IMG/VR virus record: IMGVR_UViG_3300023210_000036
Location: 1-60,504 of that record
Strand: one strand, 5' to 3'
Length of the DNA: 60,504 nucleotides
Source: a virus
Taxonomy: Duplodnaviria; Caudoviricetes
In this document: positions 1,976 to 42,302 of the stretch, one piece after another
Position numbering within the stretch: position 1 is the stretch's first letter
How the letters are laid out: the number at the start of each line of letters is the position of its first letter
Program-made: the position numbers and the translations under genes
The notes under the pieces: model-generated
The model's input: the letters and a program-made list of their open reading frames with translations, nothing else
Told to the model about the DNA's origin: nothing
Databases searched by the model: none

Positions 1976-4705
1976 TTACCCTCCCATCTTACCTGTATAG
2001 AATGGAACTACCATCCGTTTTATTTCTTTTCCTTTTTTTGCCGCTTGTGTTGGATACCGAGGTATTCCTCCAATTCTATCTACTTCACGTTGAAGATTTG
2101 TATCACTTGAATTATTTTGGGTTCCATTTACTTCATTATTATATGCTTCCCACATATCTTTATTAAACTCTACACCAGGAGTTTTTCTTTGAAATTCAGC
2201 CAAGTTATCAAACCATGCTTCTGACCTATCCGGTTGAGTGCCAACTTTATTTAATGCATTTGGATTTGTTATGTTTATCATTCCCCCTGATAGAGGATCA
2301 ATTGCAAAGTTATCGTAAGTAGTGTTTAAGTTGTATGTATCAGCTCTATTAGTATCAGCTGTATTCCATAAGTCAGCATTTTTATTAACTTTCCAATTTC
2401 TAAAATTGTCTGCAGCTTGTAATACTTTTTGAGTATTGTCATAAACACCCGTTTGTCTTTTTGCATTCTCTGCATTAACTGCCATGTCATACTGTGCTTG
2501 CATAGCCCCATACTGATTCGCAATTCCAACATTATTTGTGTTAGTTCTATTTTGAACTTTAGCATTTGCATCCATTGCTTGACCTTGAATTAATGAATTA
2601 GCTACAGCTTGAGGTCCACCTACAGCTCCGAGTGCATTGGCCATAGTACTTGCAGATGCATTGTTTGCATTAACAGCTCCTCTCCAATCATCAAATGTGG
2701 GAGCTAATTGAATTCTTTCAGCATCTGGAGCCCATGGTAAATACAGATTATCATCTATTTGACCCAAAGCTGCAAGGCTCCTTAAATCTTGCCTCCAATA
2801 TTCTGGGTTTGGTCTAGAAATTTCTTCTGGGAGAATGGTGGGTATAATTTCAGGTGGTGATGGTGGATTATCAAATGAATCACTATCAGAAAAGTATTCT
2901 CTTTTAGTAAGTTTGGGGGCATTAAAAGTATGTAAACCATACATACCATCAAAACCATACCCGCCATCAGCTGGAGTTCCATCTGCATTGTTTTCTATAA
3001 ACCATGGCACATAAGTTATTCCTGCAGCTTCAGCGTCTAATTTTCTTTGTGCAGCAATATTTTTTTGAAATGCCAATGCTTGTTCATATGGCATATCCCA
3101 ATCCCATTCATTCCCAGAGTCTGTTTCATACTGATCCATTTGAGGACCCCACCTTCTTCGTAAGTCTGCTCTTCCTTCTTCTGATTGTATATCAGCTGAT
3201 CCATATGCGGTATTTCTACTATCAATAGAATTTTGAAGTGTGGGTCTGGTACCATCAGAAAATAAACCTTTATCATTAAAATAATCTTGATTTTCACTAA
3301 GAGCTCTGTTTTGTTCTGCAAGATCGTCACCGGTAATATTTACTGATCCAGAACCTTGTAGCTCTGAAGCTTGTCTTCTTTCTATATCAACTCTGGGAGC
3401 ATCTCTAGTTTCTGTTATAGTTACTGTAGTTCGTCCATTAGCATCAACAGTTGTTGAAAGTTCATGTCCACCAGCATCTAGTTTTTCTTGCCATACCTCC
3501 CACTTAGCTGGATCAATACCTGGATTACCATATCTTGTACTAGGTTCATCAATTATTTCTGTATCTACTACAGCAGGCTCAGTTGTTGCCTGTGTAGATT
3601 GTACTTGATATACTTCAGGTACGGGGGCACCATTTTTAGCAGCTCTTGCCATTTGCACAGCCTCTGATTTAGTCAGAGATGGAGCACCACTTTCAAATAC
3701 CCAAACTTCATTTGCTTCATCATATGTTGGATCTTCAACACCTTCTGGCCAAGACTGACCCATCCTTGTAGCATATTCTGATCCTGTCTCATTACCTCGT
3801 TGAGCTTGTTTTAATCTTCTTTCACCACCAAATCTAGCCATTGCTTGTTCTTGCATGGCCATTTCTTGATTCATTTGTTGTGGCTGTTGCATTGGTTGCT
3901 GCTGACCTTGTTGCTCTTGCTGTTCCATTTGAGCCATCATTTCCTGAAGCATCATTAGCTCTTGTTGCTTTTCAGGAGGCAATGCTGCAATAGCATTCAT
4001 TTGAGCTTGTTCTCTTGTTATCTCCTCCATCTTTGCAGTAAATTCAATAGGATCTATTCCTTGTTGAACTAAGTAAGGGTGTGCTGCAAGTGGTACACCT
4101 TCTTCAAATTTCTTTTTTGATTCTTGTCCAAAAGCAACTTTAGAAAGATTCATCATATTCTTTTTAAGCATTAATTCAGCTGTAGTAGACTGTATCTTAT
4201 CTGCATATGGAGATTCTAAATTAGCATAGTATTTATTTAACTCATACTTCTTAGATAATTTTGCAGGAGTCATTTTCTTTTTAGTACTAATACCAAACTC
4301 TGCTAATTCATCTTTATTGAATTTCATTTTATTTGTATCAGAATAAATAAAGGATTGTTCTGGTAAGAACATGGGAACACCACCACTAGAATGTCTAGGT
4401 CCTTTAATATCATACAAACCAAACACACCATCATTGGTCAAATCTGTTAATACAGTTTCTCCACCTTCTGCTTCTATATTTGCATTATCTCTAGGTACAC
4501 TTGATAGACTATATCTTACATCTTTATCATCTGTATTATTAAAATTAGTATTTCTATAATACTCTTGAGGAGTTGTTACTAAACCATAGTTTGCTTGATC
4601 ACCCGTGCTTAAATCACCACCATCTCTCATAAATTTATCTTCAACAACTTTACCATTGTCTAATTTAAATCCCGCAGGTAATTTATTTATTTTAATTTTT
4701 GCCAT
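1976..4705 (-). CDS. Putative virion cargo/internal protein (909 aa)
   Basis: N-terminal EAEGGE...GPRHSSGG...FIYSD domain, Gln/Met-rich linker, Asn/Ala-rich helical C-terminus, RFGG...AQRG motif; position after the tail stabilisation gene matches crAss-like cargo genes. Confidence 0.6.
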   Translation of the reverse strand: MAKIKINKLPAGFKLDNGKVVEDKFMRDGGDLSTGDQANYGLVTTPQEYYRNTNFNNTDDKDVRYSLSSVPRDNANIEAEGGETVLTDLTNDGVFGLYDIKGPRHSSGGVPMFLPEQSFIYSDTNKMKFNKDELAEFGISTKKKMTPAKLSKKYELNKYYANLESPYADKIQSTTAELMLKKNMMNLSKVAFGQESKKKFEEGVPLAAHPYLVQQGIDPIEFTAKMEEITREQAQMNAIAALPPEKQQELMMLQEMMAQMEQQEQQGQQQPMQQPQQMNQEMAMQEQAMARFGGERRLKQAQRGNETGSEYATRMGQSWPEGVEDPTYDEANEVWVFESGAPSLTKSEAVQMARAAKNGAPVPEVYQVQSTQATTEPAVVDTEIIDEPSTRYGNPGIDPAKWEVWQEKLDAGGHELSTTVDANGRTTVTITETRDAPRVDIERRQASELQGSGSVNITGDDLAEQNRALSENQDYFNDKGLFSDGTRPTLQNSIDSRNTAYGSADIQSEEGRADLRRRWGPQMDQYETDSGNEWDWDMPYEQALAFQKNIAAQRKLDAEAAGITYVPWFIENNADGTPADGGYGFDGMYGLHTFNAPKLTKREYFSDSDSFDNPPSPPEIIPTILPEEISRPNPEYWRQDLRSLAALGQIDDNLYLPWAPDAERIQLAPTFDDWRGAVNANNASASTMANALGAVGGPQAVANSLIQGQAMDANAKVQNRTNTNNVGIANQYGAMQAQYDMAVNAENAKRQTGVYDNTQKVLQAADNFRNWKVNKNADLWNTADTNRADTYNLNTTYDNFAIDPLSGGMINITNPNALNKVGTQPDRSEAWFDNLAEFQRKTPGVEFNKDMWEAYNNEVNGTQNNSSDTNLQREVDRIGGIPRYPTQAAKKGKEIKRMVVPFYTGKMGG

Positions 4706-4707
4706 AA

Positions 4708-7700
4708 TTATAGTATTTCAATATCAGCTCCCGCTGCAATTAATTTTGCTAATGTAGTAGAGTCAACATCTACTGTATCTCCATTGTTTATCTCCATTCC
4801 TTGCTTAGCTATACCCATATTAGTTCTTACAGTTCTTTGTCCTTCACTACCAAAGGTGCCTGTATTAACATCCCAAGCACCCCTTTTCATAAAAGGATCT
4901 TCATTAGTGCCATATATTTCATCTGCCACTAAGTTATGTCTATTTTCTGCCTTAGCATCCGCATAGGCTTTATCTTCAAAATAATTATTAGCTACCCCAG
5001 CTATTTTTACTGCATCATCACTTACATTCTTATAAATTTCCATCCCTCTACTATCCATAAATCTATTATAACCACCTTCAAGTTTATTTTTTCTATCTAC
5101 CACGGGCTCACTATAAGAAGGGGGTCCTTGCTGATTAGAACCATCGTAGTTCTCCAAAGTGGATATCAAGTTTGAAACTTGAGGTCCATCAACTTTTTCT
5201 GCACCTTCTGGAATAGCACCTGTACTACTCAATTTATTTAACTGATCACCAAAGGAGGGTGTTTGTATATTTGATGGAGGGGGTGTAGGTAACCCAAAAT
5301 CTTGGTTTACATTAAACATACCACTTGCATTATTTATTCCATTTCCTCTAGGAGTGGGATCATAAACAATATCTTCTGAGGCATTAATATTATGTAAACC
5401 ATACATATCATCATCGTTTTCTGTAAAGTATGGCACATATTGCTCTGTAGATTCTTGAGTTTGTTCCCATGGTTCTCCTGTTGCTGGATTAATAGGACCT
5501 TCTATATTTTGATTATTATCACCAACATTATATGGATCAGGAAACATTGCCTCCCAGTCTCCACCTCCTGCTTGTGCTTGTGGTAAAAAGCCACCATATT
5601 TTCCAGCAACTAATGTTTTAGCACCTGCTTTACCAACTTGTTCAACACCTTCTTTAATACCTTTCTTAAAGATATTTTTTAATATTCCTGCACCAACATA
5701 AGTTGAAGGATCTGTAACTATATTTGCTCCAAGAGCAAGCCAAGGATTTTCAACTAAAGGATTTCCCTCAGCATCTTCAAGTGCGGCCAAATTCTTCATC
5801 TCACCATCATTCATGTTCTTAAAAGAAAAATCACCCTTCATGCCAGGCATAGCATCAGTAAAATTAAATTCACCATCCCCTCTTCCAGTATACCACTCAC
5901 CTGCTTCGGCAACTAGTGCGCCAGGTATACTTAGAGCATCCAGTGCATTTGAAGTATTAGTAATAGGATCTGCATTAATCATTTTAAGAGCGGGCCTAAC
6001 ATTTTCATTATAATAATTTGCAGCACCGCTAACTCCAGATTTTAAACTATTCCACGCACTACTAACAGGACCTGATCCATTACCTTCTTGTGCTTTAGGT
6101 ACACCACCATATCTAAATTCATCATCCCCAATAGAATTATATATCTCTTGTAGTTGACTTTGAGATTTACCTTGAAAATTAGATGCATTTTGAGCATACC
6201 AAGATCTAAAAGAAGGTCTTGCAATTGGAGTCGTATTAGCTTGTGGCGCTCTTGGTCCTGATTGTGCTGATGTTGGCCCACCGATTAATTCTGCAGAACC
6301 CAAACGATCAACTGTATTAGGAATCCCATCCCCATCAATATCTGGATTATAAGGATTTTGGTTAAAATCCATAATGCGGTCAATAGGGTTATCCTGGTAA
6401 TCTTTATACATACCGGCTTCTGGTTGACCAGTGAAACCTGTGGGTATCATGGAATCACTGACTTTATTTCTCCCCATCATGGTGTCATGGTAATATGGAT
6501 TGATGGCACCCGGTGCATAAGATGATGCATTACCTTGCTCATCAATACCTAATGTAGTTCCTTCAGGATCATCTTGAGTACCAAGGATTAAGTCTTTTGT
6601 ATCACCATCTGCATACTCATTAAAGTAATTTAAATTTTCTCCAAATTCATATGTAGAATTGGCATCTTTTTTACCTATACCTAAAAAGCCTTTTCTTTCT
6701 CCATATCTATCTTCACTCAATGGTCTACTAGATATTAGAGTATCATATTCTCCAGTTTCAACATTGAAATTAGCTCTAGAATTTTCATTTACATCATCTG
6801 TAAATGTTTGTAAATCTCTTAGAGTCCCATTATTCTTTGAAGCATTAAACAAATCTAAATTATCAAAAGCATACGTGTTAGGGTCATTCTCGTCTATTGT
6901 AACATCATAGTTATAATAGTCACCTTTTCCTTCTTTTCTATTTGCACGTCTTGTTTTTCTGTTAGTTATTGTTCCATCTTCGCCCAAAGTTCTATTGGCA
7001 ATGTTCCCTACAACTGACGCAACTTGTCCTAGATTAAAATTCTTTTTTGTTTCAAAGGCAAGTGGGTTTGCATAGTTAGGAGATGATGTAAGTACATCAT
7101 CTTTTTTAACTACACCTGTGGTATTAAAGAAATTCTGCGCTTCTGTTAATTCAGTTCCGCTTTGTGCTTTATGAACATACCCCATCTCTTTTAACTTGAG
7201 ATGTTGATCATATGTATTAGCCTTTCGTGATTTATTACCTTTATGCATTTCATGAGGTATAAACTCACCGCCATCTTCTCTTTTCCAACCTGCTGCATTT
7301 TTAGCAAAGTTTGCCATTTTAACTACAGATGTTGAATAAGCATCAGGATTAGACATTACTTTTCTAGCAGCTTCAAGAACACTCATACCACGTGCTTTAG
7401 CCCATCTAGTAAACTTACCTTTATTTTCAGGTTTAATTTCTATACCCGACTTTGCCATAAGATTTTGTGACATTGCATCTTGTTGTGCAACCATGGCTTG
7501 TTCTTGCTGTGCTTCTGCTTCTTGTGCTTCAATCTCCAATGATTGATTTCTAGCAATCTCTTGCGGATCTCTTGTTTGTTCTTCAGTAGATGCGGGAGGT
7601 GGAGGTTGAGATTGTTTTTGAACTTCTTCAAATAAAGCCATCACATCTTCTTGTTGATACCCGGCTGTCATAAACGCTTGTGCAATAATTTGTTCATCAA

Positions 7701-7857
7701 CTTGTTGTTCAACTAACCCCGCAACTATACTCACTGGGTCATCTCCATTATTGATGGAGTTAAAGATAAACTCTGTAATTTGTTGAATAGCCGGGTCAAC
7801 AGTTTGATTCTGCGCCTGTCCACCCATTTGTTTTAAACTTATTTTGTTTACTTTCAC
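4708..7857 (-). CDS. Putative modular virion cargo/internal protein (1049 aa, GTG start)
   Basis: Contains a basic IKPENKGKFT...ANFAKNAAGWK module, a hydrophobic LALGANIVTDPSTYVGAG segment and several GG..AQxG linker motifs. Confidence 0.6.
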   Translation of the reverse strand: MKVNKISLKQMGGQAQNQTVDPAIQQITEFIFNSINNGDDPVSIVAGLVEQQVDEQIIAQAFMTAGYQQEDVMALFEEVQKQSQPPPPASTEEQTRDPQEIARNQSLEIEAQEAEAQQEQAMVAQQDAMSQNLMAKSGIEIKPENKGKFTRWAKARGMSVLEAARKVMSNPDAYSTSVVKMANFAKNAAGWKREDGGEFIPHEMHKGNKSRKANTYDQHLKLKEMGYVHKAQSGTELTEAQNFFNTTGVVKKDDVLTSSPNYANPLAFETKKNFNLGQVASVVGNIANRTLGEDGTITNRKTRRANRKEGKGDYYNYDVTIDENDPNTYAFDNLDLFNASKNNGTLRDLQTFTDDVNENSRANFNVETGEYDTLISSRPLSEDRYGERKGFLGIGKKDANSTYEFGENLNYFNEYADGDTKDLILGTQDDPEGTTLGIDEQGNASSYAPGAINPYYHDTMMGRNKVSDSMIPTGFTGQPEAGMYKDYQDNPIDRIMDFNQNPYNPDIDGDGIPNTVDRLGSAELIGGPTSAQSGPRAPQANTTPIARPSFRSWYAQNASNFQGKSQSQLQEIYNSIGDDEFRYGGVPKAQEGNGSGPVSSAWNSLKSGVSGAANYYNENVRPALKMINADPITNTSNALDALSIPGALVAEAGEWYTGRGDGEFNFTDAMPGMKGDFSFKNMNDGEMKNLAALEDAEGNPLVENPWLALGANIVTDPSTYVGAGILKNIFKKGIKEGVEQVGKAGAKTLVAGKYGGFLPQAQAGGGDWEAMFPDPYNVGDNNQNIEGPINPATGEPWEQTQESTEQYVPYFTENDDDMYGLHNINASEDIVYDPTPRGNGINNASGMFNVNQDFGLPTPPPSNIQTPSFGDQLNKLSSTGAIPEGAEKVDGPQVSNLISTLENYDGSNQQGPPSYSEPVVDRKNKLEGGYNRFMDSRGMEIYKNVSDDAVKIAGVANNYFEDKAYADAKAENRHNLVADEIYGTNEDPFMKRGAWDVNTGTFGSEGQRTVRTNMGIAKQGMEINNGDTVDVDSTTLAKLIAAGADIEIL

Positions 7858-7876
7858 AACAATGATTTTATATTAT

Positions 7877-7887
7877 TAATATACAAA
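7877..7887 (-). promoter_or_regulatory. Putative late promoter TTTGTATATTA (representative copy)
   Basis: Exact intergenic copies at 7877, 27171, 39875 and 58004; one-mismatch variants at 22921 and 41555; all upstream of minus-strand genes. Confidence 0.65.
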
Positions 7888-7923
7888 TAAATCAAGAGAT
7901 TTACTAATTTTTAAGGTTTAAGC

Positions 7924-10900
7924 TTACCCCACAAGATGTGACATAATATAGTTAGACGGGGACATACCTAAAGCTTTGGCTTCTTTATAATGCCTTCTAT
8001 TTAGTTTATCAAAAACTTTTTCAGAAGACTTATCTCTTGGTGTGTTATTATAATCGCCATTAACATAATTTTTAAATACACCATATTCTCCACCTTTAGC
8101 TAATACTGGAGGTGTGTTACTATTTGTAATATTTGTTGCTAAAAGCATATCATTATATTCATCTGATCCTCCATATACTTCAGTTATGTATCTATTAGTT
8201 TTAGATATATATTTTTCAGAAGGTGTTTCATATCCTAATACTAATGCAGCATCATACAAACTCTCTCCTCCTGGTATTCGCGAATAGTTAGTAGATGATA
8301 TATCAGCCATACTACCTTCGTATAGTTCTCTAAGAGCAGCTAGCTCTTCTTCACTATTTCGTGTATTTTCATCATTTCGTCCTGTTGTTAATAATTTGCT
8401 TACCCCTTGATTATAGGAAAGCAAAGTCATATTTCTGACATCTTCTTCAGCTAATCCTAATGTTGGATATTGTTGAGCATAGTTTTTAAATAATTCATAA
8501 TTTTTAACCAGCATATAACTAACTGCATCCACTGCTTTATTATCATCAGCTAGATCAGCTGGAGAATTTATTTCAAAATAATTTCGTGCAAAATTATCTA
8601 ATGAATTGTATTTTGTTTTACCTACACCAAGTGAAATATCTGCATCTTTTGTATTTTCCCACATATGCGCTAATGCTCTAGTTACACTTAAATCATCGCG
8701 TGTTCTAGGAGCATTTATACCACCTCCTGTTTCAACACCCGTGATGCCAAATATTGCAGCATTTAACCATTCTTGATCAATACTAGAATTTAATATTTCA
8801 GGGATATGCTTAGAATTATAATTTGCTCTTTGCATTATATTACTCACTATTTTTCTTTCTTCATCTGTTAAAGATCTTTCTATTTTGTTTTCAAAATTAT
8901 CTATAAGTGCTGAGTCAGTTTGAGAAAGTGCAATATCATCTGGATCTATTTGTTCAGCATAAGTAGCAGTAAGCTTAATATTTTCATTAGGTCTAGATAT
9001 CCAAGCCGTAGCTACTTCGTTATATGGTACATTTCTTATAGTACCGCCAACATTATGAGTAATTATTGGAGTACCATTTTCATCAATACTTGATACGAAC
9101 CCAGAATGGGTGTTATGTGTTTCTGAATTTAATGTTTCTAAGTGATGATCTGACCCTGGCCAATATATACCCACTATATCACCCACTTTATAATTTGATG
9201 CTGTTGTTTGGTGCTTTCTTTTTGCTTTAGCAGTTAGGTTTTTAAGCTCAGATATAGAAGTATTTTCATCAACATTGTCAAATAAAGAATCATCATATAT
9301 ATTAAATTGTACGGCACTATTTCCTACATGCTTCATGCTTTCTAATAAATCCCAAGCATCTTTATATTTAACCCCTATTGCCTCTGTTTCTATATCATTT
9401 AATTCTAATATTTGACACATACCAGCTGCACAACGTTCATCTTCTAATGTAGTGGGAATTGTATCAAAGATTAAACCCTCAACATCCTCTTCTTCTTCGG
9501 CTTTTGATGTATTATAATCTAACAATGCCATTTTTGTACGTTCACCAAACTTACCATCTATATTGCTTTTACCAGCCTCAGTTATTTCAGGTAAGAAACC
9601 TTTTTCTATAAGTTTGGTTTGAATAGCTTTAACTTCAGTATATGTTTCAGGATTATACTTTTTATCATATCTAGATATAGCGCTTTCTTCTAATCCTGCA
9701 TCTGCTATCATTGATGAATATGCATCATGAGTCCTTTGCCCATATATACCATCTGCACCTGTTGGTCCTATATCATATCCTCTTTCTAATAAGTCCCCCT
9801 GCATCAATTGTACATCTTCAGCACTTCGTTCAGTAAAATCTTCAAAACCTCTTTCATAATTTTGACCACGTTGATTAGCATTTGTAACAAATCCTGCTAT
9901 TTGATTGGGGTCTATATATTCTTGATCTATTAACTCTTGATCCCTTTGATCTTGTTCATAATTAAAATTTAACTCTTGATGGAAAGCCTCCAGATCTTCG
10001 GGAGATAAATCATTTATGTCTCGGCCAAGATGATCAGTAAGTATGGGTGAATTTAAATTAGTTCCATCCTGAATGCTGATTATAGGTGGTTGCAACAAAT
10101 TTATATCAAGCGGGGAAAGTTGTGTTATATCAACCTCTTCTTCTACTATATCTGCATCATTATCTGTATCTGGGTCAACTGGCACACCATAAGGAAAAGG
10201 ATAAGGATTTGGATCATTGCCGCTTTCATAGCCACCATCAAATGGATAAAATTCTGAACCATCCTGAGCTTTAGGTAATGAGCCACCGTAACGTTTTTTA
10301 AAAGATTTATAACCCCCTGTAATTCCCTTCTTCTTTGCTTCATCTACACTTTCTTGAAAGCTTGCACGATCACCGGGTTTTTCTATATTCTTATGACCTT
10401 GTAGCCATAAATCTACTTGTTCCATTTTACCATCAGAATAATCTGACAACGTTGCATCTGATTCTATCAAGTTGGCAAAGAATAATGTATATTGTTTATC
10501 CATTGGCAACAGATCTGCAGATGTAGCGTTTATTATTTCTGGATCTAGGGTAAAGCCTTTTGCTCTAGCAATATTTTTATATCTTGTTTGAGCTGTTTCT
10601 AATGATGGACCTTCAAACTGAAAAACACCTCTTCCTGGACCATCAAAAAGACTACCGTCTTCATTTTGTGATATTTGTTTAGCTAGTCTATCCATTCTTT
10701 GTTGAGCGCCACTTTCATGAAATGCAACTGTGTCTGCTGTATTACCCCAGAATTCTTCTGTTCCACCTCTTGATTCTGAAACATAGGCTAATATATTATT
10801 AAAATCTAATAGTGATTTATCTACTTCATCATGAAATTCACTCCAATCATTAGGTACTAAACTCTTTCCATTCCACTTGTATCCTTCGGGTGCTTCTTTA

Positions 10901-13900
10901 GGACCTACCTCTACTCCTCCTTGTGCTACAGGTAAAGTATCTGCATCTGGTAAAGTCCCAGTATCTGATATAGTGTTTAACATTTGTAAAATGGACTCCT
11001 CAGAATAAAGTCTTTTTAAGTCTCTAAAAGCTTTAACTCTTGAAGTTGGCATATCATCATATGTAATTTCTTTATTAAATACATCAACCCCATTAACCTT
11101 CATATCTTTTCTTATTTCATTAAGTCTAGCTCTAACTTCAGTAGGGTCGGAATAATAGTTTCTAGTCCCTTCTTCTGGTGTATCACCATAACTTTCCCAA
11201 AAACTAAGAGTTTTTCCTATATCAAGAGTTGGATCAATAAGATTACCCATAAGGTCTATATCATTATTTGGTATTAGTCTTCCTTCAGGATCCATTCCTC
11301 TTGCATAAAATTGAACTATATCTGTTAAGAGAAAGTTATCAGCAGGTCTATCAATACTATGTGAGATTTCATGATCATACAAAGTAGGCGCTCTCCCCCC
11401 AGATTTTGGTTTTACATAAATCTTTCCTGTATCAGATTCTGAATATCCTGCTATACCGCTAAGGGCCTTTTCAGAATAATATTGATTGGGGTCATTAGAT
11501 ATATATAATGGTGCATCTTGTAATTCGTTAAAATTACTAATTCTCCCACGTTGTACATCTCCAGCTCTATTCCACCATTCACTACCCCCACTATTATTTA
11601 ACATCTCTAAATATCTTGGGCTATTCATCCATTTACCTGCAAAATCTTTTGCTGAATCAAGATTCTTTTGATTGGCATTTTGCAATGCCTCATCCTCATG
11701 CATTATTACATTTCCATCTAGCCCGCTTACATAATCTAGACCTTTACCTATTTGTGCTTGTGGTAACTGTTCACCACCATCACGTTCATTTGCTAATACA
11801 GCCCCTACACCTGCTGCTGGAAACATCCATGCATTTTCTAATATGGGTCTTACAGCATCTTTCCATCCTTTACTTCCCGGTTTTAATATATTTCCAGCAT
11901 CATCTCCTAAGTTTCTAAAAAGATCATCAACACCAAATTTATTTTGACCATTAATAACATCATCTGAAAATTTAGATAATAAATCATCAGTTACTTTTCC
12001 ATAATTATATCCATATTTTGAAACTAGATTTTCAATAGCCATAATATGCCTTGCATTTTGTTCCATTGGATCAGATAAATATTCAAATCTGTTTCCATAA
12101 CCAGACATTGGTGTATTTTTTAATTCAGAGTTTATGGGCGTTGTCATATGCCGTTGCCCTTTATGAAATCCGCTGCTTATGTCTTCCATTGAAACAGCTT
12201 TCTGTTTTAACGCTTTTTGAATTGATTCTATACTTTCACCTTTAGCAAGTTTGCCTTTTGCTATATCATACATTGCATCAAGAAGTTCTGTATTACTACT
12301 TCCAAACTTTGTTTGAAATGCATGTAAAACTTCATGATCAAAAACGTCAAGATACGTATCAAGGTTAGGGCTATATCCAACTCCTGATCCGTCTGGTGTT
12401 TTTATTGTAATATTTTTTCCACTGTATATACCTTGAGTTTCTAGATCTTTATTAAATTTTACAACTATTTGATCAAAGGCATTTTCCATAGATTTTACAT
12501 CATCATTTATATATTTTGCAATATCTGCATCTGATGCGTTTTTAAATTTATCTGTTTCTCTTAACTGTGTACCTCTTCTTTTAATATATTCATCGCTATT
12601 TACCCATGCTTTTCTTTTTGTCACTACATCATCAAGTTGGGATCTTGTTAAATTTCCGGTTTCATTACGCCCCATCCTATAAGTTGCATTTTCTAAACCT
12701 TCAGTTGTAAATTCAGATACAGAAGGATTAAAGTAATCATCTACGTACTTTGCCCCGTCATCAATATACTTTGCTATATCATCAACATACTTTGGTAGTT
12801 TTTTAACTCCTGCCTTTAAGAATGCTCCTAGCTGAGCTTCTGGTAAACTTCCTCCATATTTAAGACCAAAACCTGCTGCTTCTCCTTCATCTGTTACGCG
12901 GATTTTAGTTTTAGGATTGCCAAAAAAATTTGTTTTATCTACTTGTGTAGCTAAAAGATTATCTTCCTTGTCATATATATTAAATTCTTGCTTTAATCTT
13001 TCTCTGTTACCGTTATTTACTGATTTAATATTCATATTAGAATACCCATCCTCATTAGTAACCGTGGTATCTTCCAAAAAAGTTTGCTTTAACTTTTCAT
13101 TACCATTGTTCTTTTTCTTAGAATTTACTTCATAAGAGCTAGTGCTATCAACATGAGAATCAGGAAGAACCCCTCCTCTTGGTGAAATTAGCCCTCCCGG
13201 ATACTGTGAGGAGAATGGTATTTCAGGTTGGTCAATGAGTGTTGCGGGTCTAGGAATTAAAGGTTGTATTGTTGTATTACCCTGGGCACCCGTATAATCA
13301 TAAGAGCCATTTGCAGGTATACCTGACCCATCAAACCCATATTGATCAATGGACACATTGGGTATAGTAGTTCCGTTAGGCCCAGCGGGTACTTTAGTGT
13401 TTCCAATTCCTGAACCATAAAAATCCCCAGTTATAGACGCTTCATCCCCCGGTTCTGTTCTTTCTCTATTTTGTACATCAGTTTCATTTTTTGTTTGTGA
13501 TTTTTTCCACCTCTCAGCCTCAATCTTAAAATCCGCAAGACTACCTTTGTTACCTGCAGCCAACCAGTTTTCGTAACCCACCTTCCAGTTTACACCACGC
13601 TTAGAATATTCAACATCACGGTTACCAGTTCTTTCGTCAATTATTGTTGTGGCACCTGTAGTTGGATTAACACTTCTGCTTATCTCAGCCCAATCTCCGT
13701 ATATAAATGGGTTTGCAGAAGTTTGATTTAACTCAAAACCCTCTTGAGCCCTTGGTAATGAACCACCTCGTCTCAGTTTCTTTTTCCAAGATCCTTCACC
13801 AAACTTAATAGCTGCTTCTTTATTAGTTCCAAAGTCTATTACCTCACCTCTTTTCAATGCTTCTTGATATACAGGTTCCCACGGTTCTTCTAAAGAGATT

Positions 13901-14349
13901 GACATATCTACCCATGTTCCATCTTCATTTTGAAATAATGTAGGAAAAGAAAACCAATTACCTTTACCGTCTGTTTCTGTTCTCATTATATGAGTAGACT
14001 CCCCAACTACATTACCTTCTTTATCATAATTTAATCTAACTCCCTTTCGTTTAGGGACTTCCCGACCTGCTTGAGCCATTGGTACTTCAAATACTTGATC
14101 ACCAGGAAATTGATAGTTATTACCCGGAGTCATTAATTTTCTATTACCTAAGTTATCAGTTCCTATTACCGGAAAGTCTACACCCTCCATGGTAATATTA
14201 CCTGAGTTAATAATATTGTATGGATTATTTACATCTGGACTATCTGCCTTGTACCCCTCTAAGGAATAAAAATCAGAAAAGTTTGTTATATATTCATTTG
14301 GGCCGCCCTTTAGACCAATGCTTTTTTTGTTATTTGAGTAATTTGCCAT
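7924..14349 (-). CDS. Multidomain virion cargo polyprotein: two zincin-like domains, lysozyme-like domains, two peptidoglycan-binding domains, CHAP/NlpC-like domain (2141 aa)
   Basis: HEVLH and HEISH, each followed by YxSDPxExxAR; AFHESG...GRGVFQFE; two PG-binding repeats (DVQLMQGDLLERGY...ADGIYGQRT; EVKAIQTKLIEKGF...IDGKFGERT); CAAGMC...VGDIVGI...THSG; GVETGGG...SYNQG. Confidence 0.7.
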   Translation of the reverse strand: MANYSNNKKSIGLKGGPNEYITNFSDFYSLEGYKADSPDVNNPYNIINSGNITMEGVDFPVIGTDNLGNRKLMTPGNNYQFPGDQVFEVPMAQAGREVPKRKGVRLNYDKEGNVVGESTHIMRTETDGKGNWFSFPTLFQNEDGTWVDMSISLEEPWEPVYQEALKRGEVIDFGTNKEAAIKFGEGSWKKKLRRGGSLPRAQEGFELNQTSANPFIYGDWAEISRSVNPTTGATTIIDERTGNRDVEYSKRGVNWKVGYENWLAAGNKGSLADFKIEAERWKKSQTKNETDVQNRERTEPGDEASITGDFYGSGIGNTKVPAGPNGTTIPNVSIDQYGFDGSGIPANGSYDYTGAQGNTTIQPLIPRPATLIDQPEIPFSSQYPGGLISPRGGVLPDSHVDSTSSYEVNSKKKNNGNEKLKQTFLEDTTVTNEDGYSNMNIKSVNNGNRERLKQEFNIYDKEDNLLATQVDKTNFFGNPKTKIRVTDEGEAAGFGLKYGGSLPEAQLGAFLKAGVKKLPKYVDDIAKYIDDGAKYVDDYFNPSVSEFTTEGLENATYRMGRNETGNLTRSQLDDVVTKRKAWVNSDEYIKRRGTQLRETDKFKNASDADIAKYINDDVKSMENAFDQIVVKFNKDLETQGIYSGKNITIKTPDGSGVGYSPNLDTYLDVFDHEVLHAFQTKFGSSNTELLDAMYDIAKGKLAKGESIESIQKALKQKAVSMEDISSGFHKGQRHMTTPINSELKNTPMSGYGNRFEYLSDPMEQNARHIMAIENLVSKYGYNYGKVTDDLLSKFSDDVINGQNKFGVDDLFRNLGDDAGNILKPGSKGWKDAVRPILENAWMFPAAGVGAVLANERDGGEQLPQAQIGKGLDYVSGLDGNVIMHEDEALQNANQKNLDSAKDFAGKWMNSPRYLEMLNNSGGSEWWNRAGDVQRGRISNFNELQDAPLYISNDPNQYYSEKALSGIAGYSESDTGKIYVKPKSGGRAPTLYDHEISHSIDRPADNFLLTDIVQFYARGMDPEGRLIPNNDIDLMGNLIDPTLDIGKTLSFWESYGDTPEEGTRNYYSDPTEVRARLNEIRKDMKVNGVDVFNKEITYDDMPTSRVKAFRDLKRLYSEESILQMLNTISDTGTLPDADTLPVAQGGVEVGPKEAPEGYKWNGKSLVPNDWSEFHDEVDKSLLDFNNILAYVSESRGGTEEFWGNTADTVAFHESGAQQRMDRLAKQISQNEDGSLFDGPGRGVFQFEGPSLETAQTRYKNIARAKGFTLDPEIINATSADLLPMDKQYTLFFANLIESDATLSDYSDGKMEQVDLWLQGHKNIEKPGDRASFQESVDEAKKKGITGGYKSFKKRYGGSLPKAQDGSEFYPFDGGYESGNDPNPYPFPYGVPVDPDTDNDADIVEEEVDITQLSPLDINLLQPPIISIQDGTNLNSPILTDHLGRDINDLSPEDLEAFHQELNFNYEQDQRDQELIDQEYIDPNQIAGFVTNANQRGQNYERGFEDFTERSAEDVQLMQGDLLERGYDIGPTGADGIYGQRTHDAYSSMIADAGLEESAISRYDKKYNPETYTEVKAIQTKLIEKGFLPEITEAGKSNIDGKFGERTKMALLDYNTSKAEEEEDVEGLIFDTIPTTLEDERCAAGMCQILELNDIETEAIGVKYKDAWDLLESMKHVGNSAVQFNIYDDSLFDNVDENTSISELKNLTAKAKRKHQTTASNYKVGDIVGIYWPGSDHHLETLNSETHNTHSGFVSSIDENGTPIITHNVGGTIRNVPYNEVATAWISRPNENIKLTATYAEQIDPDDIALSQTDSALIDNFENKIERSLTDEERKIVSNIMQRANYNSKHIPEILNSSIDQEWLNAAIFGITGVETGGGINAPRTRDDLSVTRALAHMWENTKDADISLGVGKTKYNSLDNFARNYFEINSPADLADDNKAVDAVSYMLVKNYELFKNYAQQYPTLGLAEEDVRNMTLLSYNQGVSKLLTTGRNDENTRNSEEELAALRELYEGSMADISSTNYSRIPGGESLYDAALVLGYETPSEKYISKTNRYITEVYGGSDEYNDMLLATNITNSNTPPVLAKGGEYGVFKNYVNGDYNNTPRDKSSEKVFDKLNRRHYKEAKALGMSPSNYIMSHLVG

Positions 14350-17300
14350 TATCTAAGGGATGTAAGTAATTTAGTATTATTTAATCTTAATAACATCTTT
14401 CTATTATCAGAATCCATTTTACGCAATATTACATTAGTGAAGTAGTGTCTAAACTTTTTATGTTGTAATGGGGATTTTAAATAGTTTAAATTAATAAAGT
14501 TTAAATTTTTAATATACCCATTAGGTTCAGTATCCCATATAGGTTGCTCAACATTGGTAAATTCTCCTCTATCATTTGTAATATCCCAAAATTGATTAAA
14601 TCTATATTTCTGTTCTACTTTAGAACATAAGATATTAATATTGTTTCCATTAATTATAGGATAGGTTAATTCTAAAATGGGGTTATTAAATGGAGTGGGA
14701 GTTAATTGCAATAACCCTGATACCTGCTCATTATTGTAGATGACCGATTGATCAAAATTAAAGTTTAGATCTTCCCATTTATCATCACCGCACAAAAACC
14801 CAGGATCATTTTTATATACATATGCTTCCATCTGATATTCCATACTTCGTACAGTGTTGACTGTTTGCCCTGTATTAGCCACTAATTCTATTTCCCATGG
14901 ATATTGTATATTATAAAAATTAGCATAACTATCACATCTAGCATTATGTCTCCATAGTGTACCCGCATTATAGTTGGCGGGCACAGAATCATAATAAAAA
15001 TAATTGCATAATGGAGGATCAGGATTAACCCAATTAGGGTCCCCTATAGCAAATAATCCTGGTGCAGAATCTGGGCAAGTTCCAGTTACTGTTGTTGTTG
15101 AATTAGGAATAGTAGATTCAGGACAACCGCATATAACTTGTCTACATATGGGGGGTCTTTCATATTTGCATGGACCATCCTCATCGGTGTATAAATTTGT
15201 TAATTGGTTTGGGTATACTAATGTATAACCAGTGGGACACGCACATGCAATGGGTTCAGAACAGACACCACTTGCTATTTCTTCTGCTGCAGCATCTATT
15301 CCAGCGCTTACGTTAGCACTCATTGTAAGCTGGTATGGACCCGGTGTTCCTGTACTTGTATCATATGTAGTGTTAGAAATATTATTCATTACTACAGCAC
15401 TTGGGGGAGTGCTGGATGTTGCACCACAATATATTGCATATATTTCTTGTTTACGCTGATCAACAGCTATATTAGCAGGTGAACTTTGTAAATTATTTTC
15501 AGCCCACTCACCTGTATTTTGAGCTTGGGGTGTACCTGCTGTTGCATTTGGAGTTTGAAATTTATTTACATTGTTTTCTGCTAGTCCATTTGTTCCATCT
15601 GTTACAACAATTAAAATTTGCTTAAAAGATGCATTTTCTTGTCTAGTTGGATATTGAGATGCAAAACTTGAATTTGCTTTATCATTTAATTGTGCTAAAC
15701 CACCTTGCCCTGATGTTGGACTTGCTGTACCAATTGCCGCCACCACACTAGTGGTGCCACCAGCCCATGCGCCAGTATACCAATTGCATGCCTCTTCTGG
15801 TAAAACTGTATTAGTCATTGATTTATTACCAGGTTGCATCCATCTTACACCACTACCAGACCACCCTTGAAATCCAACTTGCATAGTTCCTGCAGACATT
15901 GCCCCACTAATTGATGTATTATTTAAAAATACATGTAACCAACGTAATTGAGCTGATGCACGGGTTACCATTGGTGCTGCTATAGAACCAGTAACACAAT
16001 TAATAGTCGGAATACCTGTACTTCCTGACCAATCCATTGCAATTACAATATCTAATTTGCAATTTTCTCCTCCACCAGTTATTGTAGAAACTATATCACT
16101 TACATCTATGGTTGCGTTTGCTGTTGTATTTACGGCTTGTTCACATAATCCAGTATCAGGATTAAAATTATATCCCGGAGGACACAGAGGTGTATCCGTA
16201 AGTATAGTCTTAGTAGTAAAAAAGTGATTTATACTTGGTATAGAAAATTCAGGATGCCAATCATGAAAAGATATCCATGCTTTAGCTTTTGGATCATAAC
16301 TAATAGTCCAAGATGCGTCATCAAAATAAATAGGGTCTCCTAAAATTATAGGAATCTTTCCATGAGCTGTCTCTAACATAAAGCCTGTTAAAGCACCGTA
16401 TGTTATCATATCAATCCATTCACTCTTTACTCTATAATCCTTCTTCATAAAGTAGGCAATGTCATCATTCGGATCATATATAGATTGACATCCCACACCT
16501 ACTACCGCATTATCTGATAATTTAGAATATTCTAATTCGGGGTACTGCTTAATTAATTGTGATGGTAGATACTTATTAAACCACCACTTCATTCCTTTAT
16601 TAGATATAGGATCTAAACCTTGACCAGCATAATGGAAAATCTTTCCTTGTGCTTGCGAGATATAAAATATTCCCATTGGTGTATTCATAACTCCTCTTAA
16701 ACTTTCACATGAACCATATTCATTTGAAAGATCTGAGTTAGTTATATTCTGAAAGGGTTGGCTAAACAATCCTCCATCACCTATAGTTATTTTAGTATCT
16801 AATCCTGTTTTAAGAGTATCTAAACCCTGAAACATTTGTGGAGATAAGTACGGGAAAAATACTATTGCTCCACTTTTATTAATAGGTTTAATAATACTTA
16901 CTTTATTTTTAAAGTCTTTATAATTAAAATTTAAGAAAACTCTCCAGTAATCTTTTTTAGATTCATGTTGTGCCTGTAGCGAATATATAAGTCTTTTAGG
17001 ACGACTGACATAACAGTTGGCTGCTACATAAGGATCATAATATCTGGGCTGTACTTGTCCAAATGAAGTTATTTGACTTGTTAATTTAGAAGGACTTAAT
17101 GATTCATCATACTTATAAAAGTTATCTATTTTTTCTATTTGAGCATGAAATAATTCTGTTAAATCATTATACTCATATATATTATATATTCTTTTTGCTG
17201 CTGTATCTTCCCAATCTCTATGAGCTAAATTTATTTCTGACTCAACAAAGAAATCTAAAATACCATTTGAATGACTATACATATACGCATATCTCATTGC

Positions 17301-24321: not shown

Positions 24322-24882
24322 CTATGTAGCTAAAGTAGAAAATAATATTTCAATTGGTTTACATGAGGATGAATTCGCTGAATCCACAACCTTTACTTTA
24401 TATGCTGTGCTGGCAGATAAATTTGTTATTGTATAGTTATTTATCGTAGTTACAATGGGCACAGTATTTTGAAGTACCCAGGCTCCAGGAGCCACTTGAG
24501 TATTAATATATATATTTATACCAGCACTAGAACTCCATATACCATTCCAAAGAACGGATGCTGTAGAGGCTGTAATAACACCCGCATAAACATTGTATGG
24601 ATCATGTTGTAGATCATTTGATGTACACGCACCCAAACCATTACTTAATATCATAGCAAATTTTTGGATAATTGAATCCAATCGCTCTCCTTTGGTTATT
24701 TGCAATAATGCACTTGGATCTCCAATTTGAAATGTAGTACCGCAATAACTCACACATTCTGCACATTGGATATCATCACATCTTTCACTACCCACACTGC
24801 AATCAGTATAGGTGCATGCATTAGTTAGAGCTGTATCAGAACAACTACACGTTACACTACATTTTGTACAATTACATGCCAT
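24322..24882 (-). CDS. Cys-rich protein with C-terminal FN3-like domain (virion decoration/fibre)
   Basis: Cys-rich N-terminus; YTITNLSASTAYKVKV is an FN3 signature. Confidence 0.6.
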   Translation of the reverse strand: MACNCTKCSVTCSCSDTALTNACTYTDCSVGSERCDDIQCAECVSYCGTTFQIGDPSALLQITKGERLDSIIQKFAMILSNGLGACTSNDLQHDPYNVYAGVITASTASVLWNGIWSSSAGINIYINTQVAPGAWVLQNTVPIVTTINNYTITNLSASTAYKVKVVDSANSSSCKPIEILFSTLAT

Positions 24883-32794: not shown

Positions 32795-32795
32795 A

Positions 32796-34535: not shown

Positions 34536-34684
34536 TGTTCTATTTCAAATTTAAGTAGTTGTATCATTTCATCATTAAACCCATATCCAGGTTGCATTAA
34601 AAATTCTTCTTGTAAAGCCAATTCATATTCAGCTAAACAATTTAACCAATATTCTCTATCTGTATCTGGTTCCATTATATCCAT
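34514..34684 (-). CDS. Small acidic hypothetical protein (56 aa)
   Basis: Below the ORF-track cutoff; MDIMEPDTDREYWLNCLAEYELALQEEFLMQPGYGFNDEMIQLLKFEIEQCINQLA fills the gap between two genes. Confidence 0.6.
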   Translation of the reverse strand: MDIMEPDTDREYWLNCLAEYELALQEEFLMQPGYGFNDEMIQLLKFEIEQCINQLA

Positions 34685-34685
34685 T

Positions 34686-36131: not shown

Positions 36132-36228
36132 AATTGCGTTTATGTATTGCTAAGATAAGGGTTTAAGGTAAAAAGGGAGCACAAAATATATATTATTTAA
36201 GTGCCCCCTCTTACCCTTAATTTTTAAT

Positions 36229-38502: not shown

Positions 38503-38536
38503 AATATTTTTATTTTACTTTGTTATATTTGTATTG

Positions 38537-39073: not shown

Positions 39074-39074
39074 C

Positions 39075-39260
39075 TTATCTGTTTCTTAAATCTTGAATTT
39101 TTTGTCTTGCTATTTCTAAATTTAAATCTTTAACTGCAGGTTGTGCAGCTTGTGAGTTATTATAGTCATTAGCACATGTCTTATGAATATTTACTCCGTT
39201 TCCTACTGAATGTTTTTGGCATCCACAAGTAAAGGGTTTATTACATTGTACACAATTCAT
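39075..39260 (-). CDS. Small Cys/His-rich (Zn-binding) protein
   Basis: CxxC...CGC...HKTC. Confidence 0.55.
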   Translation of the reverse strand: MNCVQCNKPFTCGCQKHSVGNGVNIHKTCANDYNNSQAAQPAVKDLNLEIARQKIQDLRNR

Positions 39261-39270
39261 TTTTTTGGTT

Positions 39271-42291: not shown

Positions 42292-42302
42292 TGTCTATAT
42301 AA

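Follow-up and report, generated by a model that had tools for sequence, protein, structure and literature searches.

The window analysed here is a 60,504-nt stretch of a marine crAss-like (Crassvirales-type) phage (positions 1 to 60,504 of the IMG/VR record IMGVR_UViG_3300023210_000036) and covers about half of its genome. On the minus strand, the genes for the portal, the capsid, ring 1, ring 2, and the muzzle are followed by P0001, P0002, P0003, and P0005 (Table 1). This order from portal to cargo is identical in the relatives G001 to G005, and the product of the gene that separates portal from capsid resembles an acidic scaffold. Because the muzzle gene (PF25731) directly precedes P0001 to P0003, past the ring, capsid, and portal genes, these three products are identified as cargo, in agreement with a preliminary description of the sequence that had taken them for virion proteins. 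The N terminus of phi4:1 gp040, annotated as a virion protein by MS/MS, resembles the P0001 module M1. Orthologues of P0005 occur in G001, G003, G004, and G005.

P0001 to P0003 are presumably ejected cargo proteins built like beads on a string, with conserved end pieces, exchanged internal modules, and a short motif as the joint. In each, both the N-terminal module and the C-terminal tail are conserved across phages. P0001 begins with a conserved N-terminal module and ends in a conserved tail of 53 aa; between them lie five swappable modules and then a peptidoglycan-directed C-terminal part. In P0003, a conserved N-terminal domain is followed by a Q-rich stretch, one motif copy, and a C-terminal half that is also conserved. 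When the translations were checked, the previously listed motif copies were all recovered in place, on the minus strand.

Table 1. Features of the cargo block in the window (M1 to M6, modules of P0001).
Feature	Position (nt)	Strand	Remarks
Muzzle protein P0004	14349..20675	-	2108 aa; PF25731 crAss_MUZ, E 1e-24
Cargo protein 1, P0001	7924..14349	-	2141 aa; ORF, translation, homology map, family comparison
VPMAQAG	14059..14079	-	P0001 aa 91-97; core half only; ends conserved N-terminal module M1
RRGGSLPRAQEG	13735..13770	-	P0001 aa 194-205; M2/M3 junction; within disordered aa 187-214 (AlphaFold)
KYGGSLPEAQLG	12823..12858	-	P0001 aa 498-509; junction of M3 and zincin-like M4
Module M4	11782..12822	-	P0001 aa 510-856; second HExxH, HEVLH at nt 12322-12336
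RDGGEQLPQAQIG	11743..11781	-	P0001 aa 857-869; M4/M5 junction; disordered, residues 1-38 of M5 model
Module M5	10930..11742	-	P0001 aa 870-1140; zincin-like metallopeptidase; HEISH at nt 11359-11373
LPVAQGG	10909..10929	-	P0001 aa 1141-1147; after M5; disordered, residues 285-316 of M5 model
RYGGSLPKAQDG	10255..10290	-	P0001 aa 1354-1365; between M6 and C-terminal peptidoglycan-directed part
Peptidoglycan-binding domain	9520..9639	-	P0001 C-terminal part; PF01471, E 6e-8 (whole protein), 3.5e-9 (piece)
VLAKGG (half-motif)	8086..8103	-	P0001 aa 2083-2088; precedes conserved C-terminal tail
Conserved C-terminal tail	7927..8085	-	P0001 aa 2089-2141; family comparison
Cargo protein 2, P0002	4708..7857	-	1049 aa; conserved N- and C-terminal ends, variable middle; probable partial homologue of crAss001 gp45
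MAKSG			P0002 aa 136-140
VHKAQSG	7141..7161	-	P0002 aa 233-239
RYGGVPKAQEG	6067..6099	-	P0002 aa 587-597
KYGGFLPQAQAG	5551..5586	-	P0002 aa 758-769
IAKQG (degenerate copy)	4792..4806	-	P0002 aa 1018-1022; precedes conserved C-terminal tail (..IAAGADIEIL)
Cargo protein 3, P0003	1976..4705	-	909 aa
RFGGERRLKQAQRG	3782..3823	-	P0003 aa 295-308
Cargo protein 4, P0005	3..1916	-	Runs off window end; 0 motif copies

The joint is a conserved peptide of 13 residues. In most copies its core, L-P-(K)-A-Q-x-G, comes after a basic residue, G-G, and one further residue; the fixed positions are G, G, L, P, K, A, Q, and G. The residue that lies two positions ahead of G-G was tallied in 128 copies (K, 52; Q, 19; E, 15; R, 14), and Glu is only mildly enriched two residues past the last Gly (23 copies). 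Eight positions are fixed or nearly so across phages whose capsid proteins are only 21% identical. At orthologous positions, Q is replaced by K and A by F, Y, or V. Those corresponding to VPMAQAG of P0001 read PMAQxG, PKAQxG, PIAKSGG, PMYKRGG, or PLVQRGG, and the junction marked by RFGGERRLKQAQRG in P0003 reads AKYGAEVLPQAQDG in G001, MAKYGSELPKAQDG in G002, and MAQDGVELPKAQLG in G003. The GG half is dispensable, as LPKAQxG without it occurs at natural N termini and directly against domain ends, and the spacer between domain end and core ranges from 0 to about 12 residues.

The expected enrichment of the motif in cargo proteins was borne out. P.AQ.G occurs eight times in P0001 to P0003 (4,099 aa) and is absent from the remaining 42 called proteins (15,109 aa), and 1000 composition-preserving shuffles of the three proteins gave a mean of 0.06 and a maximum of 2. 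The longer pattern [KR].GG.{0,5}[KLP].AQ.G was found seven times versus zero times (shuffle mean 0.00, maximum 1); bare [KR].GG is unconvincing alone, its 11 occurrences in P0001 to P0003 equaling the shuffle maximum. In 121 homologues of P0001, 251 copies of PxAQxG were observed versus 1.8 expected, with 0 to 8 copies per protein, and GGxLPKAQxG is present on at least 119 viral contigs. Throughout six genomes the motif is limited to cargo-block genes, save for two weak matches in the giant protein of G001 and, in two of the genomes, a portal match that is a regex coincidence. Cellular genomes hardly contain it: in 596 Gb of such sequence, GGxLPKAQxG gave 24 stretches, 11 of them in frame; only two of these look genuine, and both lie on small low-GC contigs that are probably phage. 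A search of 151 Flavobacteriaceae genomes for LPKAQxG revealed no conserved host protein, and no cultured phage in the "phages" collection matched the motif-gene queries except for phi4:1 gp040, which has a variant only. Copies are rarely terminal: among 124 in 430 complete ORFs, six start within the first 25 residues and one ends within the last 25. Further N-terminal core copies occur in the stand-alone proteins of L016 and cr128, and small as well as large stand-alone proteins carry N-terminal copies after a short basic stretch (MRKMKKQLPKAQSG, MSRKLKNKSKKILPKAQSG, MKKLRKAQKG, and MNKKLRKYQEGG).

Conservation at the protein level, proposed from three copies whose codons (GGT GGT TCA, GGA GGA AGT, and GGT GGC TCA) had been quoted correctly, was confirmed. 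Codon use at the invariant residues equals the background, with a pairwise nucleotide identity of 0.73, and selection therefore acts on the protein. The position of the motif between domains rather than inside them is likewise supported by structure prediction and by homology. The four copies covered by two AlphaFold models have pLDDT values of <50 (for VPMAQAG at P0001 aa 94-97) and lie between domains with values of 80-96, and 931 of 3,704 internal ends of homology blocks fall within 20 aa of a motif, compared with 297 +/- 17 expected. KYGGSLPEAQLG is the right-hand edge of a 69%-identical block common to P0001 and L001, RYGGSLPKAQDG closes the block at P0001 aa 1180-1369 that is common to L018, and RYGGVPKAQEG opens blocks that P0002 has in common with L075 (aa 587-744) and L059 (aa 587-754). 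The overall picture is one of folded modules of about 90-350 aa, disordered linkers between them, and one short linear motif per linker.

The short variants of the preliminary description stood up in part. VHKAQSG, IAKQG, and VLAKGG hold by positional homology: the first corresponds to THD[VA]PKAQTG in L011 and L014, the second (IAKQG-MEIN) aligns with VAQRG-LEIE of L104 (LRVAQRG-LEIEV..IAAGADIEIL) and with NVAQTGGE or AKEGGE in other genomes, and the third has the family equivalents [LF]-K-x-G-G-E and [LF]-K/A-K-G-G-E, followed by the conserved tail YDKLNR..NYI. MRDGG of P0003 corresponds to a [RQE]-x-G-G that is kept in all six cargo-3 N termini. MAKSG is also retained, being the exact point at which one gut crassvirus protein begins; the start of that protein, MTIEIKK.., lies one residue past ..MAKSG-IEIKP.. 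of P0002. REDGG and AAKKG could not be distinguished from composition.

The idea of a plug-in architecture with swappable modules is supported by the comparison of homologous loci. In another phage, the segment corresponding to P0001 aa 196-509 stands between the same motifs with different neighbors. In a close relative whose capsid protein is 91% identical, the internal modules are not the same, and such a pattern is the hallmark of a phage-host arms race. The module repertoire includes zincin peptidases, peptidoglycan-binding and peptidoglycan-cleaving domains, ADP-ribosyltransferase-type domains, and many unknowns. Within the P0001 family, LysM, YkuD, SLT, PG_binding_1, and PF18760 were detected, the last of which we take to be Pfam's ART-PolyVal.

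Two adjacent modules of P0001 contain an HExxH motif. In M5, H149, E150, H153, and E227 (HExxH plus a downstream Glu) are invariant in 16 aligned sequences, and the AlphaFold model (pTM 0.67) has three strands followed by the HExxH helix. Zincins stood at the top of both fold searches, with Foldseek E values of at least 0.12 and VIA matches to PepO (Z 7.0, rmsd 5.2, 187 aligned) and PPEP-2 (Z 6.9, rmsd 3.8, 140 aligned), Z values that are weak if taken alone. The three-stranded sheet, the HExxH helix, and the downstream Glu are the features by which the zincin hub of polyvalent proteins is recognized. M4 is likely also a peptidase, judging from its sequence. A Pfam search of M4 and M5 that included the polyvalent-protein peptidase model gave nothing at E <= 1, and the Atlas leads to the polyvalent-protein domain LPD23 (0.88 and 0.83; 0.83 for M4) are weak and below the 0.9 level. 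The pool holds 66 M5-like modules, 58 of which keep HExxH. HExxH is present in 54 of 121 members of the P0001 family, and M5-type zincins are present in 28 of 120. In addition, a conserved zincin (YHEAFH) occurs in the 4,600- to 4,900-aa cargo protein of all four relatives that reach that far.

We tentatively interpret the motif as a processing signal that is cut by co-packaged zincin peptidases, a reading that we hold with somewhat less than even confidence and prefer to that of a docking or encapsidation tag. On this view, the end modules, which are conserved, would carry the entire chain into the particle, and a virion-packaged metallopeptidase would recognize the exposed linker and release separate effectors by cutting the polyprotein, whether inside the filled head or once ejection has taken place. 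Candidate proteases are the M5-type zincins, the commonest module in the same proteins, and the conserved zincin of the giant RNA-polymerase-associated cargo protein. N-terminal copies on small stand-alone proteins could be short propeptides that serve for targeting and are then clipped, as in T4. Processing is favored because there is a copy at essentially every junction (seven full and several partial), as needed for cutting and not for docking, because the motif is long, specific, glycine-flanked, and disordered between domains in the covered models, and because selection is on the peptide. It is further favored since peptidases sit in the same proteins, with two HExxH modules in P0001, and since the gut crassvirus protein starts just past the MAKSG point. 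Published hypotheses agree, as polyvalent proteins are predicted to be processed by their own zincin domains (main text of PMC5512222) and crAss-like RNA-polymerase polyproteins, with a zincin in the block, are called "likely cleaved" in a passage of a preprint (10.1101/2020.03.07.982082).

Several observations argue against cutting. M5-type zincins occur in just a minority of the family, and the zincin of the giant protein is also found in crAss001 gp47, yet crAss001 gp45-47 are devoid of the motif. Nor is the motif present in the giant polyproteins, for which cutting is expected in the literature. N-terminal core copies offer 3-18 residues at most to remove, the Q/K and A/F/Y/V variation is loose for a protease P1 site, and AlphaFold placed neither flanking motif in the M5 cleft. 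A canonical head-maturation protease was not found: families S78 and S77 were detected in none of five records, all of which are fragments (44-88% complete), and the S77 search says little, because its control rang in no control genome. Finally, the crAss001 structure paper describes docked cargo segments, and its main text has no word beginning with "cleav" or "proteoly" (PMC10172136).

An alternative, which we regard as possible but rather unlikely, is that LPxAQxG is bound, uncut, by a conserved interior site such as the capsid lining, scaffold, portal, or tail rings and makes any tagged module loadable. Such a tag would serve terminal and internal copies by a single function, the core is kept at the natural N termini of stand-alone proteins, the tolerance of Q/K and A/F/Y fits a binding groove, and the copies are confined to cargo-block genes in the six genomes apart from the portal coincidence and the two weak G001 matches. 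There is also a precedent in crAss001, where, according to the main text, short segments of one cargo protein are bound to the portal, ring proteins, and muzzle (PMC10172136). However, one tag per polypeptide would suffice, yet each junction keeps one under purifying selection; 0 to 8 copies per protein fit poorly with fixed 6- or 12-fold sites, and packaging handles seem to be available already in the conserved N-terminal module and C-terminal tail. Quite improbable, in our view, is a portable joint that has no specific reader and acts as a flexible hinge for stepwise unfolding and refolding through the tail and for in-frame recombination. The disordered, Gly- and Pro-rich character of the linker, its presence at every shuffling boundary (the excess of block ends given above), and the variable spacer would suit such a hinge, but a passive linker would drift rather than keep eight near-fixed positions at 21% capsid identity, and the codons show no extra nucleotide conservation to guide recombination. 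Least probable is a motif directed at the host, bound or cut after ejection by a conserved Bacteroidota factor (periplasmic protease, chaperone, or cell-wall enzyme). The strict conservation would be explained if the reader evolved more slowly than the phage, the motif is confined to cargo proteins 1-3, whose recognizable domains are peptidoglycan acting (PG_binding_1; LysM, YkuD, and SLT in the family), and it is missing from the polymerase polyprotein bound for the cytoplasm. The hosts themselves do not use the motif, however, as is evident from the two genuine-looking and probably phage-derived stretches in the cellular genomes and from the result for Flavobacteriaceae.

Loading and cutting might also be combined. 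It is doubtful that LPxAQxG is an "address-and-cut" code of a large marine crAss-like branch, in which the peptide on the N-terminal side would load a module and a co-packaged zincin would release it. If so, new effectors would be gained by recombination between two copies, and Crassvirales would have its first defined rule, written in sequence, for how cargo is loaded and processed; the code would also be a handle for loading chosen proteins into phage particles.

Short motifs that recur in many internal proteins are familiar from the head proteases of T4 (gp21, L/I-x-E) and phiKZ (gp175, S/A/G-x-E), for which cleavage is established; for the motif described here it is predicted. Those motifs comprise three residues and end in Glu, whereas 8-10 positions are fixed here, and an S77 or S78 protease was found in none of the five fragmentary records. 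A three-residue consensus ending in Glu was rejected on account of the fixed positions. The N-terminal copies are best modelled on the T4 capsid-targeting sequence, a peptide of about 10 residues at the N terminus that directs internal proteins into the head before being removed. Adenovirus and ASFV have Gly-Gly-X maturation sites in virion precursor proteins, and the Gly-Gly pair is indeed a likeness. The analogy drawn from it in the preliminary description was not supported: adenain needs a hydrophobic residue at P4, whereas this position holds Lys in 52 of 128 copies, the motif can do without its GG half, and a C48-type protease (PF02902) was found in none of the five fragmentary records. 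Encapsulin cargo-loading peptides (7-15 residues, Gly-rich, on a flexible linker) bind to the inner face of an HK97-fold shell; they are terminal and single, whereas the copies here are mostly internal and multiple, and any binding by these copies is putative. A single peptide at a protein terminus is at odds with the few copies near either end (6 and 1 of 124).

The crassviruses belong to the most abundant phages known. By what means they select several megadaltons of cargo protein, store it, and let it go is presented as an open question in the crAss001 study, which describes C1 (gp45) and C2 (gp46) as cargo proteins that the virion stores and then ejects (Bayfield et al. 2023, PMC10172136). 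P0001 to P0003 take up the same position in the genome, next to the muzzle gene on its downstream side. P0002 aa 132-199 matches gut crassvirus proteins (E 3e-9 to 8e-4), and a 60-aa mini-module of the G004 cargo protein 2 matches crAss001 gp45 aa 364-423 (E 4.5e-5), the sole match to gp45/gp46; a PDB sequence search gave no match. Unlike the proteins described here, crAss001 gp45-47 are without LPxAQxG (a loose motif unit occurs nine times versus 6.9 in shuffles, with no enrichment beyond composition), and gp45 (842 aa) and gp46 (534 aa) are much smaller.

Our search found no paper describing an LPxAQxG junction motif, and the nearest published concept is that of the polyvalent proteins. According to the main text of Iyer et al. 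2017 (PMC5512222), these are very large injected proteins of phages and conjugative elements with 2-15 unrelated domains, among which a zincin-like metallopeptidase is the commonest hub, often in several interspersed copies, and cell-wall-attacking and ADP-ribosyltransferase domains occur. P0001 similarly unites two HExxH modules, PG_binding_1, and an uncharacterized C-terminal part. The conserved junction peptide is the difference, as the main text of that study contains no word beginning with "linker" or "crass" (PMC5512222). The motif is a concrete handle that marks the module boundaries in three cargo proteins and separates a conserved chassis from a fast-changing payload. As a cleavage site, it would fill a gap by giving a sequence rule to the processing that has long been predicted for polyvalent proteins; as a docking tag, it would be the phage counterpart of the encapsulin loading peptides. 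On either reading, module boundaries in thousands of unannotated giant phage proteins would become readable from sequence.

Every copy of the motif [KR]xGG-x-LPxAQxG listed in the preliminary description was found at its position in the cargo proteins P0001, P0002, and P0003. The string P-x-A-Q-x-G occurs eight times in these three proteins versus none in the remaining 42 called proteins (shuffle mean, 0.06; maximum, 2 in 1000 shuffles) and the full form seven times versus zero elsewhere (shuffle maximum, 1), while the [KR]xGG half by itself did not exceed chance in shuffles of the three cargo proteins. The proposed conservation at the protein level was borne out as well, since the codons used at the invariant residues match the background. 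Together with a pairwise nucleotide identity of 0.73 over 30 nt, this background-like codon use rules out a DNA-level repeat or recombination site, and the codon use shows that selection acts on the motif peptide only. A loose regular expression of the motif also matches a conserved LMK[AP]YQ[VI]GYN at about aa 522 of the portal protein in many relatives; it sits within a conserved portal segment, and the match is treated as coincidence.

The GG part of the motif behaves as a spacer. Between the end of the P0001 module M2 (..GEGSWK) and LPKAQ, the distance varies from 0 to ~12 residues, and some stand-alone proteins carry the core by itself right at their start, behind a short run of basic residues. 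Where module M1 ends, the orthologous sequences are PMAQxG, PKAQxG, PIAKSGG, PMYKRGG, or PLVQRGG and, in Cellulophaga phage phi4:1, PNFQAGG; Q/K and A/F/Y/V exchanges are therefore tolerated.

The window is the entire record for this genome, a linear virus contig with an estimated completeness of 53% and a GC content of 0.35, and its minus strand holds all long genes. The virion cargo proteins of Bacteroides phage crAss001, namely gp45, gp46, and gp47, are encoded behind its muzzle gene (PMC10172136). The named phages with the nearest muzzle homologues infect Flavobacterium and Cellulophaga, and we infer a marine Bacteroidota host; for motif-bearing phages in general, marine Flavobacteriia are the probable hosts.

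Features of the window and of related records (window coordinates unless a record or locus is named)
Feature	Coordinates	Strand	Remarks
GroES-like co-chaperonin gene, 91 aa	51774-52049	-	phrog_3188, E 8e-19; directly upstream of terminase gene, with overlap
Terminase	49595-51781	-	phrog_6681, E 3e-62
Portal	46817-49573	-	
Acidic scaffold-like gene	45365-46681	-	between portal and capsid
Crassvirus major capsid protein	43704-45323	-	PF23898, E 1e-30
Fibres, then crassvirus ring proteins 1 and 2		-	after capsid gene in order
Two cysteine-rich proteins	24322-24882; 24904-27120	-	between fibre and ring genes; both match fibronectin type III
Muzzle protein, 2108 aa	14349-20675	-	PF25731, E 1e-24
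DIVIAMDWSGS, muzzle aa 1542-1552	16020-16052	-	
P0001, 2141 aa	7924-14349	-	directly after muzzle gene
Cys ... GDIVGIY ... THSGFV, P0001 aa ~1640-1750	9100-9430	-	after peptidoglycan-binding domain
P0002, 1049 aa	4708-7857	-	follows P0001
Mini-module, P0002 aa 132-199	7261-7464	-	60-70 aa
P0003, 909 aa	1976-4705	-	follows P0002
Fourth cargo gene		-	after P0003, cut by window end
Giant cargo proteins (record coordinates)	G001 39428-53260; G003 32688-47312; G004 70095-83945; G005 13296-27146		loci L155-L172
Small motif proteins (IMG/VR loci)	L113 3198-5965; L143 2784-3551		157-281 aa

With one position left free, a back-translated pattern matched 19 viral contigs, all 19 with Lys at this position, and GGxLPKAQxG is present in at least 119 viral contigs. 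A logo built from 128 distinct copies gives [F/K/Y]-[K/Q/E/R]-[Y/E/D/N]-G-G-[S..]-L-P-K-A-Q-x-G-[L/I/K], without conservation outside the motif. Recognisable crassvirus muzzle or cargo modules accompany it in 85 of 125 loci; of the remaining 40, many are short or have large motif proteins encoded close to the terminase and portal genes. P0001 is a member of a family, its N-terminal module being matched by 133 proteins (E <= 0.001). Among the 121 family proteins analysed (120 matches listed, plus P0001), 115 contain at least one PxAQxG, with a total of 251 occurrences over 203,972 aa (shuffle expectation, 1.8; maximum, 6 in 50 shuffles). A looser unit ([KQRE]xGG or [AFY][QK]xG), tested against shuffles as an order-wide feature, exceeded every shuffle in the window, the related phage records G001, G002, and G004, and phi4:1, and did not do so in G003, G005, crAss001, cr127, cr128, and FpV4; for gut crassviruses, we therefore limit ourselves to individual positional matches. 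The small motif-bearing proteins at L113 and L143, one with the motif at its very N-terminus, lie close to exonuclease-like genes instead of behind a muzzle gene; Pfam gave no match for them, and they could represent small cargo proteins.

Across 596 Gb of genome sequence from bacteria and archaea, GGxLPKAQxG matched 24 stretches, of which 13 are out of frame and nine in frame in GC-rich DNA (GC, 0.52 to 0.66), with an ORF of >150 aa in just two; the remaining two, on small low-GC contigs, look plausible. Of 151 Flavobacteriaceae genomes, 40 contain a match to LPKAQxG, and no conserved host protein with the core was found in the set of 151. Mimicry of a host motif is not supported by these two data sets. 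One Flavobacteriaceae match is strongly recurrent, besides two smaller recurrences of two genomes each. Most occurrences of the former fall in frames of 23-24 codons, so it probably belongs to a conserved non-coding RNA gene; for motif scans it is a trap. The DNA concerned translates to [LF]PKAQRGG.GCFPV, is common to ten loci (L186, L191, L194-L199, L201, and L207), and lies inside such frames at eight of them.

In each of the three cargo proteins, the two ends are conserved and the central part varies. More than 25 proteins begin with the N-terminal module of P0001 (aa 9 to 96, ending in VPMAQAG), and >15 finish with the last 53 residues of P0001. The closest relative has the same gene order and a 91% identical capsid protein; between its first cargo protein and P0001, only two parts are shared, the N-terminal module at 73% and the last 670 aa at 49%. 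Payload modules of the P0001 family include LysM, YkuD, SLT, PG_binding_1, PF18760, and above all HExxH modules. Pfam returned PG_binding_1 as the sole match for 15 separate modules and nothing useful for ten motif-bearing proteins from other contexts.

The location of the motif outside domains, as originally described, agrees with two AlphaFold models of P0001, which place the motif stretches in disorder between or flanking folded cores. In aa 1 to 215 (29-sequence alignment), domains are predicted at aa 5 to 92 and 105 to 186 (pLDDT, ~80 to 96), and both motif stretches have a pLDDT of <50; in aa 845 to 1160, the core is folded and the two flanking motifs are disordered. The M1 and M2 folds had no PDB match at E <= 0.001. 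When 157 motif-bearing ORFs were compared all against all, homology blocks started preferentially just before the motif and ended just after it: 931 of 3,704 internal ends lie <=20 residues from a motif versus 297 +/- 17 for random placement (maximum, 345 in 200 trials), although some of this excess is expected, since alignments are lengthened by the motif itself. The suggested plug-in architecture is clear in single examples. Residues 196 to 509 of P0001 are 69% identical to a block of locus L001 with the same bounding motifs and different neighbours. M2 (aa 99 to 211) is internal in two other proteins, at aa 776 to 887 and 580 to 712. Gene fission or fusion at the motif was seen in 18 cases, none of them informative.

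Three stretches deserve separate mention. DIVIAMDWSGS in the muzzle protein resembles a von Willebrand A domain metal-site motif, and Pfam matched this protein at the N-terminal crAss_MUZ alone. The Cys ... GDIVGIY ... THSGFV pattern of P0001, which resembles an NlpC/P60- or CHAP-type cell-wall peptidase, lies in a region without a Pfam match. The P0002 mini-module (IEIKPENKGKFTRWAKARGMS...) is common to the gut crassviruses cr127_1, cr128_1, cr50_1, and Dulem virus 41 and to phrog_20603, is linked via G004 to aa 364 to 423 of crAss001 gp45, and stands right at the start of the first cargo protein in cr127_1.

With respect to a reader of the motif, the initial analogy with the adenovirus and ASFV Gly-Gly proteases was not supported, and the C48 family was absent from the five fragmentary records searched. 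The S78 and S77 families were absent from them as well, the S77 control matching nowhere. Neither Pfam nor PHROGs revealed a head protease in the structural block, where the gene that separates portal from capsid (438 aa) is acidic and poorly conserved and has no PDB match; a 338-aa gene yielded nothing either. A canonical head protease was thus not found in the structural block and the five records. Zincins are numerous. In module M5, HExxH and a Glu are invariant, and its predicted model resembles zincin peptidases, e.g., PepO (VIA Z, 7.0; rmsd, 5.2; 187 aligned) and Pro-Pro endopeptidase (Z, 6.9; rmsd, 3.8; 140 aligned), with a best Foldseek E of 0.12. The pool contains 66 M5-type modules, 58 with HExxH, and just 28 of the 120 listed family proteins carry one. 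Family proteins with HExxH have 2.59 motif copies per 1,839 aa versus 1.66 per 1,562 aa without, a weak link between HExxH presence and motif number. In 4/4 relatives extending far enough, a single cargo protein of 4,610 to 4,874 aa has a conserved zincin motif, NSP[FY]RYHEAFHG, whose aligned counterpart in crAss001 gp47 lies near aa 2157. The giant proteins look like the fused RNA-polymerase polyproteins of the phi14:2 preprint; they contain no copy of LPxAQxG, and crAss001 gp45 to gp47 none of the motif.

We tentatively favour cutting at the motif, with or without targeting. To our knowledge, all motifs that recur among the internal head proteins of phages are protease sites. Each junction has one motif copy, the sites are exposed and specific, and peptidases reside in the same proteins; moreover, processing has been predicted for polyvalent proteins (PMC5512222) and for the crAss-like RNA-polymerase polyprotein (10.1101/2020.03.07.982082). 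That the motif is instead a pure docking peptide, without cutting, is somewhat less likely; in its favour are the N-terminal copies kept by stand-alone proteins, the tolerated substitutions, and the short cargo segments seen docked in crAss001 (PMC10172136). A T4-like signal that is first used for targeting and then clipped would reconcile cutting with docking. A merely passive joint is improbable, and reading of the motif by the host slightly more so.

A search of article texts yielded no phage paper for LPKAQ, GGSLPKAQ, SLPKAQ, or YGGSLP, and a search on crAss-like cargo proteins and proteolytic processing found nothing. A conserved junction peptide is likewise absent from the searched text of PMC10172136 and PMC5512222. 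The modular, injected, zincin-rich giant protein corresponds to the "polyvalent protein" (PMC5512222), and the genomic slot of P0001 to P0003 is the crassvirus cargo slot (PMC10172136).
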